From contig CM119267.1 in assembly GCA_051294375.1 (NCBI GenBank), positions 14,439,694 through 14,503,693 of the forward strand: a DNA stretch of 64,000 bases, given 5' to 3'. The DNA comes from Paraspadella gotoi (taxonomy: Eukaryota; Animalia; Chaetognatha). The notes beneath the pieces are model-generated. The model did no database searches and was not told where the DNA came from. It saw only the letters and a program-made list of their open reading frames with translations. The translations under genes were made by a program, and so were the position numbers. Shown one piece after another: positions 2,522 to 63,645 of the stretch. The number at the start of each line of letters is the position of its first letter. Position 1 is the first letter of the stretch.

Positions 2522-3596
2522 ATGAATGAGTTGATGATATCGACGAACTTGCCGCCGAACGGAAAAGACTCAAAGAGCGATATTGCTGACGGTTGTGCTT
2601 ACCCCGCTTCTCGACCTCTTGTCTTGTGTGGCCCGTCGGGATGTGGCAAATCCACAATACTCAAAGCCGTCATGTCACATCCGCAATATAAAGTAATTAT
2701 TCTTTTAAAACAATTTTATATTTTTTCTGCGAAAACCATATAAATTTAAATTCTACATAACTTGTTTAACTTCGCAAGAAATTACTCTCTCCACATTTTA
2801 TTGCAGGATCGTTTGGGCTTCAGCGTCTCCCACACAACAAGAAAGCCTCGTCCCGGTGAACAGCACGGGCGCGAATATTACTTTACCGATAGGCATTGCA
2901 TGTTAAGAGACATCGAGGCGGGGTTGTTTATCGAATCGGCCGAGTTTTCCGGAAATCTCTATGGAACGAGCAAGGTAAGGATTTTAACTTTGAGGGCCGA
3001 GAAGCTTTTCAGCGAGTAGAACCGGGTGATTCGTTCTAGCTCCGTCTCAGGAATCGGTGAAGCGTTGCCAAAATGACGGAAAAATCTGCGTCTTGGACAT
3101 AGACGCCCAAGGTGTTCGTCTTCTCAAGAAAGTGCCGAATCTCGATCCTCTTTACGTTTTTATCAAACCTCCGAACGTTGAGACGCTGGAAAATCGCCTT
3201 CGAGGCCGGAACACTGAAACCGAGGAGTCCATCCGGCGCCGTCTCCACATTGCCGAGGTCGAGATGTCCTTCGGCGAGGAACCGGGTGTTTTCGACGAGG
3301 TCATCGTCAACGATTCGCTGGACGTCGCCGTCGAGCGACTCAAGGCCGTCGTCGACCGGTGCGACAACGGAGGCGGCCCCGATGTCTCGAACGGCGTTGA
3401 CCCCGTGGTGAAGGAAGAAATCGGACACGGCGTCGCTGAAAAAAACGGGAGCGGCGACGTAGTTGTCAAAAACGGATTCGTGAGTCCAGAAAAGGGCGTT
3501 GCATTTAGTTTCGGGATCAACGGTCATGTTCCCGCGAAGAAAGCCAAACCGTCCACGGAATCGTCGAGAGATTCAACGCCGGGAGTTGAACGTTGA
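2522..3596 (+). CDS. GUK1: Guanylate kinase (exons 2522-2692, 2807-2974, 3051-3596)
   Basis: P-loop [58 protein letters not shown] introns keep the frame. Confidence 0.95.
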
Positions 3597-4376
3597 TCTC
3601 GTATACGCACTTTTTTTCCGAACTCATTTTGGAGTCGTGCGTCCGTATCAGCTCTACGTATATTATTTGGTTCGACTTTCAATTCTCTCGATCGCAGCAG
3701 TCTTCAATTCTGGCACTCCAATTATATTAGTTGGTTATAATATATATATATATAATATAGTATAATAGTATATTATATTATTTAAGATTTAATTTTTTCA
3801 TTTTTGAAAACATTGAAGAACTGTAACTAGTATTTATTATAATTATTATTGAAAACTATATTTAATGAAAATATGAAATGGTTATTCATTGGAGAAATCC
3901 CAAAATATTATTTCTATAAAAAAATTTCTAAGAATTTTTATTTATTGGAAAAAAAAATTGCCTCGTGAAGGATTGATCTAAAATTATGCGCTTTTTAATA
4001 CGACAGAACTTTTTTTTTTGTGAAAAAAATGTTAACTTCGGACGCACGAATCTGACTTAGATTTAAGATTTTTTATTTAGTAACTTATTTGAAAATAGAT
4101 CTGACGACATAGCATATTTAATATGTAATTTCCCGTGATTCGTGCTCTTTTTGTCTGACGGGAAAATTTTTAGATTTTTCTGTTTTGCTATGCATATATT
4201 TTGGTGACAAGTTTACACAATACATCTCTCAAACATTACCAGCACTTTATTATTGTCTTTGACTCGTGTTTGGGTATTGTCTAATACATCGCTTAAGTTT
4301 TTGTACGAGGTAACGTCTTCCGGAGATTGGATCATTAAACGATATCTATTTTTCTTAGGCTTTTTGACAGATAAAA

Positions 4377-5190
4377 ATGGCGAGTCAGTCGGCGGGAATT
4401 CAACAGTTGTTGGTTGCAGAAAAAAAGGCAGCGGAAAAGGTTGCCGACGCACGGAAAAGGAAAGCCAAACGATTGAAGCAGGCCAAAGAAGAGGCCCAGG
4501 CTGAAATTGAAGGCTATAGGTTATAATTTTTAAAAAAACTTGTAAATTTCCAATATCAATCATTCCATTTGCGACCTTCATTAAATTATTCACCGGGGCT
4601 TGTAAATTTTAGAAAAGAACGCGAGACGGCTTACAAAAGCAACGAAGCTCGCCACATGGGTTCACGCGGCGACCTGCAGGCCAGGATCGACCAGAACACT
4701 CAGGCCACGTTAAAGGAGATAGATAGAAATATGAGAGGTGAGTTTGTTTTTAAAGGGTGTAGTATGGCAACAGCCGGGTTGCCTGTGATGCCCATTGGGA
4801 TGGGGCATCTCACTGTTGGCTTTGGGGGCTTCCGACCCTCAGTGACGCCTCCAGTCACTGGCGCGGTTACACTAGGACGGTCTCGCTTTGCCAACGCAGA
4901 GGGAAGTCGTTAGGACTGTGGATGGAACACTACGCTTGGGATGGTGTGTTCCCCCTCTGAGCCAATGGATTTGGCTGAAGGATGGTGGACGTGAGGCGGT
5001 GTGAATATACCGCCACAGTAGATTTTTTTTTAAATACCTATATTTCTTGTCATCTTGCTATTTTTACCTTTTACACTTTTAACTAGCCAACAAAGAAGTG
5101 GTTCTGCAGAATCTCCTCAGTCTCGTCATCGACGTCACGCCCGAGCTCCACGTCAATCAGAAGCTCGCTATTCAGAGAGAAAACGCTTGA
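4377..5190 (+). CDS. ATP6V1G: V-type ATPase subunit G (exons 4377-4519, 4613-4737, 5087-5190)
   Basis: Not in the ORF track as a unit. Translates [48 protein letters not shown]...[14 protein letters not shown], the V1G signature. Confidence 0.95.
4755..5020 (+). ncRNA. Candidate structured intronic ncRNA of unknown family (ATP6V1G intron 2)
   Basis: GC-rich island in an otherwise AT-rich intron with many hairpins (ggcaac/gttgcc, tgccc/gggca, cagtgac/gtcactg, gttggc/gccaac, cagaggg/ccctctg enclosing two stems, agccaa/ttggct, ggcggtgt/ataccgcc), followed by ACA and a T-run; G-U pairs favour the + strand. Confidence 0.6.
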
Positions 5191-61979: not shown

Positions 61980-62220
61980 AAATGTGACTTTTGTTGTTAT
62001 ATTGTTTCAATTTCGTTTTGATAATAATTTCGTTGGTATTATTTTTAGTACATTAAATTAAATAGTGTATTTAGTTTTATGATAAAATTATGATATTACG
62101 CTTTATTAAATTTGCGTTATTTTCCTTAGGTTTGCAAAATTCTTAAAAATAAGTTTAAAAAAAAAAAAAAGTGGAATAAAACGTTTCTAACATTTCGAGA
62201 ACCCATACATATCTTTTGCA

Positions 62221-63645
62221 ATGCTACGCGAAAACTTGTCATCTCATTTTTCAACAGATTTTGAAGGGTGGGCTCTTCACGTTAAAGATTCCGATGTTTA
62301 TTATTTGGCTCATGTCAGCTTTAATCGGACTGGTAGTTTTTGCATCCTGGTAGATTGTGTCGTAACGCTAATTCCACAAAAATTAAATCCGGAAACCATT
62401 TTGGTCGAAGCCATGTATGTTGATGAATTTCATGAACAGCATTTTCTAAAAAGTGAAACAATTAACTTGGCTAAAAATGAGTTTTCTCTATCGCTTTTGA
62501 CACTGCTTAAAAATCTAGAAAAAAGGAATTTTCTAGTGGAAAATAAGAGTCACGACTTTGAAAAAAAAGCAATAAGTTGTGAGTCTGACGCAATTTCCAA
62601 ACGGGTTCATTCCCATCATGATGTGATTGAAACGAAGTTTTCGATTTTAGAACATAAATCAAAAATATTCAAGGAAAAAAACCTTGTCATCAAGCAAGAG
62701 CCACTCAGTCGTAAGGAGCAAGATAGTCCAGCACGGAAACGAATTTCCAGGTTCTCCAAAGAATATTTAGCTGAAGCTTTAAACGATTCCGGTTCAGAAA
62801 AGGAAGACAAATCAGTTGTTTATAAAAATAAAAGGTTAAAGAAAATAAGGAAGTTGAAGGAGGACGACAAGCCTTTCACAATCCCCGGAAAGAAGATCTT
62901 GTATAACGAACTATCTTGCAATGACACATTTATTGGTCCCTGTCGCCTATGTCGCTTAGAATTAACTGTTAAAGACGCTGTTGATCATCATCGATTGCAT
63001 CACGAGGATCAGGTCAGCGAACATTACAAGTGTCCAATATGCGGAAAGACTGCGATGGCCATGTCTTATCACGTCCGAAAATTTCACGCTTCTAAACTTG
63101 AAAAGTGTGACCTTTGCAACAAATCGTTTGTGACCAAAACGGGAATAGAAAAACATAGAAAACGAGTTCATTTCCCTGAGAACCTTGAATTTAAATGCGA
63201 AATTTGCTTAAAGAAGTATGTTACTAAAAAACATTTGGAAATTCACGTTAAACTAGTTCACAAACGAGTAAGGGATTATATGTGTTACATATGCGGCGCC
63301 GGTTACGTCACTCCATCAAAGTTAAAAAGACACTTCATTAATGTGCACCATCTTTTTGAAAAACAACACGAGTGTAGTTTTTGCGGAAAAAAATTTGCTG
63401 AAGAAGAGGGACTCCGGCGTCATTTGATGACGCATAGCGATATATGTGAATATGAATGTTCCACTTGTGGGAAAACCTTCAAAACTCCAGGCAACTTGAA
63501 GCAGCACAAAGTTTGTCATGATCCTCCAAAACATGTATGTCTGTATTGTGGAAAAAAGTTTCTTTATTCCCAAGGTATGAGATTTCATGTGAAGCATGTT
63601 CACAAAGATGTAATAATTACTGATCCAGGAAAGAAGAAATTGTAA
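62221..63645 (+). CDS. C2H2 zinc-finger protein, paralog 3 (lacks the N-terminal segment)
   Basis: Shares GWALH..YLAHV..LVDCVVTLI, SRFSKE and the same finger array. Confidence 0.86.
   Translation: MLRENLSSHFSTDFEGWALHVKDSDVYYLAHVSFNRTGSFCILVDCVVTLIPQKLNPETILVEAMYVDEFHEQHFLKSETINLAKNEFSLSLLTLLKNLEKRNFLVENKSHDFEKKAISCESDAISKRVHSHHDVIETKFSILEHKSKIFKEKNLVIKQEPLSRKEQDSPARKRISRFSKEYLAEALNDSGSEKEDKSVVYKNKRLKKIRKLKEDDKPFTIPGKKILYNELSCNDTFIGPCRLCRLELTVKDAVDHHRLHHEDQVSEHYKCPICGKTAMAMSYHVRKFHASKLEKCDLCNKSFVTKTGIEKHRKRVHFPENLEFKCEICLKKYVTKKHLEIHVKLVHKRVRDYMCYICGAGYVTPSKLKRHFINVHHLFEKQHECSFCGKKFAEEEGLRRHLMTHSDICEYECSTCGKTFKTPGNLKQHKVCHDPPKHVCLYCGKKFLYSQGMRFHVKHVHKDVIITDPGKKKL

Follow-up and report, generated by a model that had tools for sequence, protein, structure and literature searches.

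A 64,000-nucleotide stretch of the genome of the arrow worm Paraspadella gotoi (Chaetognatha; contig CM119267.1, positions 14,439,694 to 14,503,693), which we call the window, carries 23 intact genes head to tail on the plus strand, from position 2522 to position 63645. We think it moderately likely that this 61-kb one-way array is expressed from a few long precursors, that is, as two to six operons resolved by spliced-leader (SL) trans-splicing, the largest with about 10 genes (from the sugar transporter SLC50A1 to the last of three zinc-finger genes, ZNFc). Several co-oriented genes would be transcribed as one long precursor; the chaetognath spliced leader would be added at an AG closely preceding each ATG, which would yield single mRNAs; and the upstream gene would be polyadenylated nearby, coupled to leader addition. 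Transposons in the long gaps would be tolerated because they would be spliced out or discarded.

The run of 23 consecutive genes on one strand, which had been proposed from the sequence alone, held up in exon-by-exon gene models. Their open reading frames (ORFs) have no internal stops, their 47 introns are all GT-AG in the final models, and 63% of 2522-63645 is coding. (Phosphoglycerate kinase and GAPDH form one fused ORF, which we scored as a single gene.) Every gene except NFKBIL1 has a Pfam match; where gene symbols go beyond the Pfam family names, they are our presumed assignments. An exact-match look-up of five single-exon proteins from the window gave no identical entry. We found no gene on the minus strand: 0 of 106 minus-strand ORFs (at least 40 amino acids, mostly outside coding sequence) match Pfam at E ≤ 0.01. 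On the plus strand, 44 of 71 gap ORFs were searched against Pfam, and there were two weak matches, below the cut-off. The original prediction described the genes as unrelated housekeeping genes. This fits 20 of them; the other three are tandem C2H2 zinc-finger paralogues. Scored as one locus, these bring the number of independent loci to 21. If genes were oriented independently, the chance of such a run would be 0.5^22 = 2e-7, and about 0.003 such runs would be expected per 21,000 genes. The same-strand run may extend beyond the window.

Many of the genes are closely spaced. From stop codon to ATG, the spacers are, in array order, 780, 747, 127, 229, 109, 280, 1899, 494, 287, 2197, 704, 29, 986, 326, 193, 126, 214, 210, 123, 88, 351 and 241 nt, with a median of 260 nt; 11 of the 22 are at most 250 nt and 15 are at most 360 nt. 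(The six short spacers quoted beforehand, of 127, 109, 126, 123, 88 and 29 nt, are all exact in the rebuilt models.) A cut-off of 250 nt divides the array into 12 blocks, including blocks of 4, 2, 7 and 2 genes; a cut-off of 360 nt gives 8 blocks (1, 1, 5, 1, 2, 1, 2 and 10 genes); and a cut-off of 1000 nt gives 3. The tight block at the 3' end has 7 genes at ≤250 nt or 10 genes at ≤360 nt (SLC50A1 to ZNFc).

This arrangement resembles the known SL operons of chaetognaths. According to the available parts of PMC12460157, 10,197 of 21,072 P. gotoi genes are trans-spliced, with 18% in operons, and a 250-bp gap rule gives 2,151 candidate operons with 5,061 genes, which is about 2.4 genes on average and nine at most; no leader in chaetognaths is operon-specific. 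Operons from Spadella cephaloptera and P. gotoi share with the array the phylum, the leader family (found on a relative's EIF3K mRNA, see below), ribosomal and proteasome-related content, and co-oriented genes less than 250 bp apart (here, half of the spacers are ≤250 nt); the leader is absent from the genes' own DNA, as far as the window goes. They differ in size, with a published maximum of nine genes as against a 23-gene run here, whose tight block has 7-10 genes. That block could already be among the published P. gotoi operons.

The leader itself was found in a relative. Exon 1 of the window's EIF3K (52615..53413, 223 amino acids) is 77-86% identical to proteins from JGI, Logan and MERC, versus at most 63% to those of named animals. 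A scan of metagenome contigs found four EIF3K loci. One of them, L001, is an intron-free mRNA from a metatranscriptome; it shares 191 identical residues with the 223-residue protein of the window and forms a 100/100 clade with the window's EIF3K in a tree of 26 sequences (no named chaetognath sequence was included). Bases 1-30 of L001 reproduce the chaetognath leader SL2.0, a 36-mer, over its final 30 nt (PMC2481426 Table 3), and this stretch begins 55 nt before the EIF3K ATG. Taken by themselves, the clade and the leader would very likely place the window in an arrow worm. SL2.0 accounts for 71% of the leaders in Spadella, according to the same table. The other three loci (L002-L004) are distant and carry no leader. 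Within the window, the SL2.0 30-mer has no match, even with 3 mismatches; five short leader motifs have no exact match; and an Rfam scan gave no match. Chaetognath SL genes sit in the 5S cluster, according to the available text of PMC2566580. At its other end (1043-1062), L001 stops on the AG that, among 289 positions of the 3' untranslated region (UTR), most resembles an acceptor, a hint that another trans-spliced gene directly follows EIF3K in the relative.

Within the array, a similar sign comes from assembled contigs. We aligned four contig sets (X1-X4) to 43650-63640, which lies beyond the first 43 kb and the first 10 genes. X1 is presumed to be RNA; X2-X4 are from a second study, have 8-10% of the words, and cover short parts, so gaps in them are uninformative. 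All 15 of the displayed RNA joints (out of 57) match predicted introns. An X1 contig of 4610 nt (record 3) matches the genome from 50512, the base after the predicted ZWILCH AG (acceptor 50510..50512, with an AATAAA at 50472), and this is position 26 of the record. The preceding 25 letters do not align, and they are known by length and not by sequence. The match does not extend into the genomic AG, which is expected because chaetognath leaders end in A. A leader common to 3,000-10,000 genes would be expected to leave 24-25 letters in a k=31 assembly graph (with k deduced from the word length). We infer that the overhang is a leader, and the other genes of the array would presumably receive it too. 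As another source for the 25 letters, we considered a 5' exon joined in cis to ZWILCH and judged it unlikely: no donor within that spacer scores above 3.5, as compared to a 10th percentile of 4.7, and record 2 is unspliced to 50395. For DPM3, the shorter side of an RNA joint has 193 letters, which corresponds to 46383-46575 when counted from the base after the predicted AG.

We also asked how often a plausible acceptor precedes the ATG, using a weight matrix trained on the window's own introns. For 13 of 23 genes, the 45 nt upstream of the ATG contain a good acceptor, versus an average of 6.1 in shuffled sequences (p = 0.002); in the same test, 29 of 117 tiles from introns and 17 of 106 tiles from spacers passed. 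With 120 nt, 18 of 23 genes had one, versus 13.2 in shuffles (p = 0.036); of the intron tiles, 30 of 52 passed too. The enrichment is real, modest and incomplete. All donors fall short of the 10th percentile of true ones in 10 of 14 short spacers, which leaves the AGs there with no partner in cis. As for the ten pyrimidine-rich AGs of the original prediction, eight coordinates were exact and two (14597 and 54805) were off by one base (14596 and 54804). Candidate acceptor AGs besides those given with the genes below end at 9659, 11396, 52602, 57659, 60289 and 62129.

The most compact pair, DPM3 and RRP7A, is similar to those tunicate and nematode operons that have no intercistronic DNA. Their 29-nt spacer contains no AG, and RRP7A's ATG is the first one after the acceptor of DPM3's intron (46769). 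From this layout (46579-47002), the two genes may compete for that acceptor: splicing in cis would give DPM3, and splicing in trans would give RRP7A. An AATAAA at 46997, within the coding sequence of RRP7A, is a candidate poly(A) signal for DPM3.

Contigs run across several of the spacers. In the aligned stretch, 4 of 12 spacers are bridged by one listed contig (SLC50A1-POMP, ZWILCH-EIF3K, ZNFa-b and ZNFb-c), and two more (EIF3K-RPL19 and RPL19-BCAP31) are bridged if equal depth and length arithmetic are taken into account. Of the other six, three remain without a bridge among the X1 records displayed, and three were not displayed. Contigs in X2-X4 that are continuous with the upstream gene stop short of the next AG by 43, 5 and 25 nt, and by arithmetic an X1 contig does so by about 15 nt. 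The largest gap, of 2197 nt between GAPDH and the MOSC-domain gene, is filled with repeats and is probably an intron (42100..43708). An X1 contig (record 1) enters the MOSC acceptor at 43707, with 949 upstream letters, and their number fits a donor at 42099, which is how we deduced the donor. In the gap between MOSC and DPM3, contigs provide cover up to 116 nt before the AG.

These contigs bear on two other explanations for the array. Most of the genes might be monocistronic (leader-bearing or not), each with its own promoter that overlaps the 3' end of the upstream gene, with dense packing and avoidance of antisense transcription accounting for the shared orientation. It is true that contigs are uninformative as to where transcripts start, that three spacers lack a bridge among the displayed X1 records, and that trans-spliced genes of P. 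gotoi are more often non-operonic than operonic (in the available parts of PMC12460157). However, we consider this explanation improbable: spacers of 29-127 nt, together with upstream RNA that reaches to within 5-43 nt of the next AG, leave little room for promoters, and a chaetognath case from 2008 has just three bases between the poly(A) site and the acceptor. Alternatively, the genes might be translated from mature, cis-spliced polycistronic mRNAs, by leaky scanning or re-initiation and with no leader. Intron-free contigs do contain several ORFs and retained spacers (records 2-4). Yet SL2.0 heads the relative's EIF3K mRNA, record 3 starts at an acceptor with foreign letters, and assemblers can presumably drop short leader branches and merge neighbours, so we regard polycistronic mRNAs as very improbable.

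Several results do not sit easily with trans-spliced operons. For 10 of 23 genes, EIF3K and POLRMT among them, even the best nearby AG scores lower than the 25th percentile of true acceptors. A usable donor is present in 4 of 14 short spacers. All 30 bins have X1 depth, so precursors or DNA could fill the spacers, and a contig across two genes is no proof of a single transcript. Finally, the length of the ZWILCH overhang does not identify it as a leader.

If SL-resolved operons are the correct reading, how many are there? If the links at MOSC hold, then five gaps of 494-1899 nt (3597-4376, 5191-5937, 25902-27800, 30327-30820 and 47856-48841) stay, which allows one to six units. At the low end, all 23 genes (and perhaps more) would be a single unit with a promoter upstream of GUK1, as in kinetoplastids and with the same leader. 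The leader mechanism is common to this alternative and to a few units; we infer the number of promoters in the array. A single unit fits the lack of any strand switch over 61 kb, the spliced contig that apparently crosses the 2197-nt gap, and the cover of the MOSC-DPM3 gap. It also fits a composition bias: T exceeds A on the plus strand in all 22 spacers, and bases 1-2400 lack that skew. But the five gaps are big enough for promoters, the 949 upstream letters of the MOSC contig are known by length only, U-rich UTRs and acceptors can cause a T > A skew, and published chaetognath operons contain nine genes at most.

To see what the orientation implies, we simulated genomes in which the operon counts were those published for P. 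gotoi and each unit was oriented at random. If operons were scattered, then just 4.8% of simulated genomes had a run of at least 23 genes, which favors a single unit. If operons were adjacent to each other, then 92% did, so orientation alone is no proof of one transcript. A second long run, which also favors a single unit, is on a bacterial artificial chromosome (BAC) from Spadella: all 14 named non-transposon genes are on the plus strand, and of the table's 24 rows, the 4 on the minus strand are transposons (PMC2481426 Table S5). As a second case it is biased, since the table omits gene predictions that have no SwissProt match and the operon was the reason for highlighting this BAC. One sentence in the available text of that paper states that the other genes on the BAC are clustered and share an orientation (PMC2481426). 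Overall, we think that one unit for the entire array is unlikely, although it is the most probable of the three alternatives. The original prediction combined SL trans-splicing and operon-like packing with one or a few very long polycistrons. The former is well supported, if indirectly, by the relative's SL2.0 and the ZWILCH overhang, while for the latter the strand run by itself is insufficient.

In kinetoplastids, directional clusters are long one-strand runs of unrelated genes, leader addition is coupled to polyadenylation, and cis introns are nearly absent. The array is similar in that tens of unrelated genes (23 over 61 kb) are on one strand, and it differs in having 47 cis introns and in coming from a phylum in which about half of the genes are trans-spliced. 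The SL operons of Ciona, Oikopleura and C. elegans also consist of co-oriented, unrelated genes, with the leader at a 3' acceptor. However, the leader sequence differs. In Ciona, most operons comprise two genes, and the largest have six or seven (according to the available parts of PMC7986045). In the literature searched, which lacked most subscription papers, we came across no animal operon or strand run of such length, and neither "operon" nor "trans-splic" occurs in the main text of the two chaetognath genome preprints. SL trans-splicing and operons were already known for chaetognaths, and very likely this known mechanism also acts here; the length of the array is a possible novelty.

The array starts with guanylate kinase (GUK1-like; 2522..3596, 3 exons, 294 amino acids, PF00625), with a candidate acceptor AG that ends at 2437 and a C-terminal extension of about 80 amino acids without a Pfam match. 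It is followed by V-ATPase subunit G (4377..5190, 3 exons, 123 amino acids, PF03179; candidate AG ends at 4358) and by the single-exon, NFKBIL1-like ORF (5938..7122, 394 amino acids; candidate AG ends at 5918), whose name is from the original prediction. Next are a myotubularin-related gene (MTMR9-like; 7250..9469, 708 amino acids, PF06602 and PF21098), TRMT6/Gcd10 (9699..11316, 517 amino acids, PF04189), a PDE12-like gene (11426..14334, 617 amino acids, PF21171 and PF03372), and a large ZZEF1-like gene (14615..25901, 6 exons, 3159 amino acids) with APC10 and CUB-like domains and two ZZ fingers. The ankyrin-repeat protein (27801..30326, single exon, 841 amino acids) has a long low-complexity middle part without a Pfam match. 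The mitochondrial-type RNA polymerase (POLRMT-like; 30821..34276, 1128 amino acids) matches PF00940.

Downstream of the fused PGK-GAPDH gene are the MOSC-domain gene (43765..45692, 9 exons, 397 amino acids; 7 of its 8 introns are among the RNA joints displayed), DPM3 (46397..46869, 93 amino acids; candidate AG ends at 46382), and RRP7A (46899..47855, 284 amino acids). The SWEET/SLC50A1 sugar transporter (48842..49572, 220 amino acids) opens the tight 10-gene block, and POMP/UMP1 (49899..50333, 144 amino acids; candidate AG ends at 49861) and ZWILCH (50527..52488, single exon, 653 amino acids) follow. After EIF3K come RPL19 (53628..54621, 196 amino acids; candidate AGs end at 53579 and 53611), BCAP31 (54832..56584, 233 amino acids; candidate AG ends at 54804), and a METTL6-like methyltransferase (56708..57592, 270 amino acids; candidate AG ends at 56694). 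Last are the C2H2 zinc-finger gene a (57681..59943, 530 amino acids), with a 607-nt inverted-repeat element within its intron, and its tandem paralogues b (60295..61979, 541 amino acids) and c (62221..63645, 474 amino acids). All three share an N-terminal region without a Pfam match, and the short first coding exon that a and b have is missing from copy c.

Most of the longest gaps had been said to contain transposon remnants. We can confirm this for the three longest gaps (those of 1899 and 2197 nt, based on repeats within the window, and that of 986 nt, based on repeat-level RNA depth) but not for the gaps of 780, 747, 704 and 494 nt. Two of the repeats in the GAPDH-MOSC gap are also found within introns, at 11819-12584 (PDE12 intron 1) and 39489-39935. 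Short inverted repeats, similar to miniature inverted-repeat transposable elements, are at 26340-26670, 55378-55914 and 57734-58340, and the intron region at 55-56 kb collected very many RNA contigs. A short element occurs twice within GAPDH introns (40169-40268 and 41075-41174), in copies that are 89% identical and have no Rfam match; it is possibly a short interspersed nuclear element.

The PGK-GAPDH gene (34564..41567, 15 exons) encodes consecutive glycolytic enzymes in one ORF of 791 amino acids, with the junction within exon 36512-36655. Full-length homologues at 79-80% identity carry the fusion too; for one of them (P0005), the PGK half scores best with chains named phosphoglycerate kinase 1. 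The ESM Atlas also returned the PGK-GAPDH family by name, with no usable taxon. Dinoflagellates and a ciliate have PGK-GAPDH fusions too (about 55-60% identity), which probably arose separately. No named animal was among the matches we found, and we found no report of the fusion in the literature searched; the passages of PMC7729029 that were available report none.

Together, the window and the Spadella BAC raise the possibility that arrow worms have such long one-way arrays in general. More specifically, arrow worms might have kinetoplastid-like directional clusters of 60-120 kb or more, in which tens of housekeeping genes with introns share one or very few promoters and are resolved by spliced leaders, with transposon-filled gaps that are spliced out. 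This is possible, if rather doubtful. If it is true, then the window would be the longest animal operon in the literature that we found, and the Spadella BAC would be a second case. Distance-based counts of animal operons would be too low, and the 250-bp rule would have split such clusters into small pieces. Read-through and leader addition would allow same-direction insertions downstream to be expressed without promoters of their own, and such insertions may be the route by which arrays grow. If one-way arrays are real transcription units, then an animal has moved towards a trypanosome-like expression of its housekeeping genes while it kept its introns and, elsewhere, its promoters; how polycistronic genomes arise, and how their genes are regulated post-transcriptionally, would become testable.

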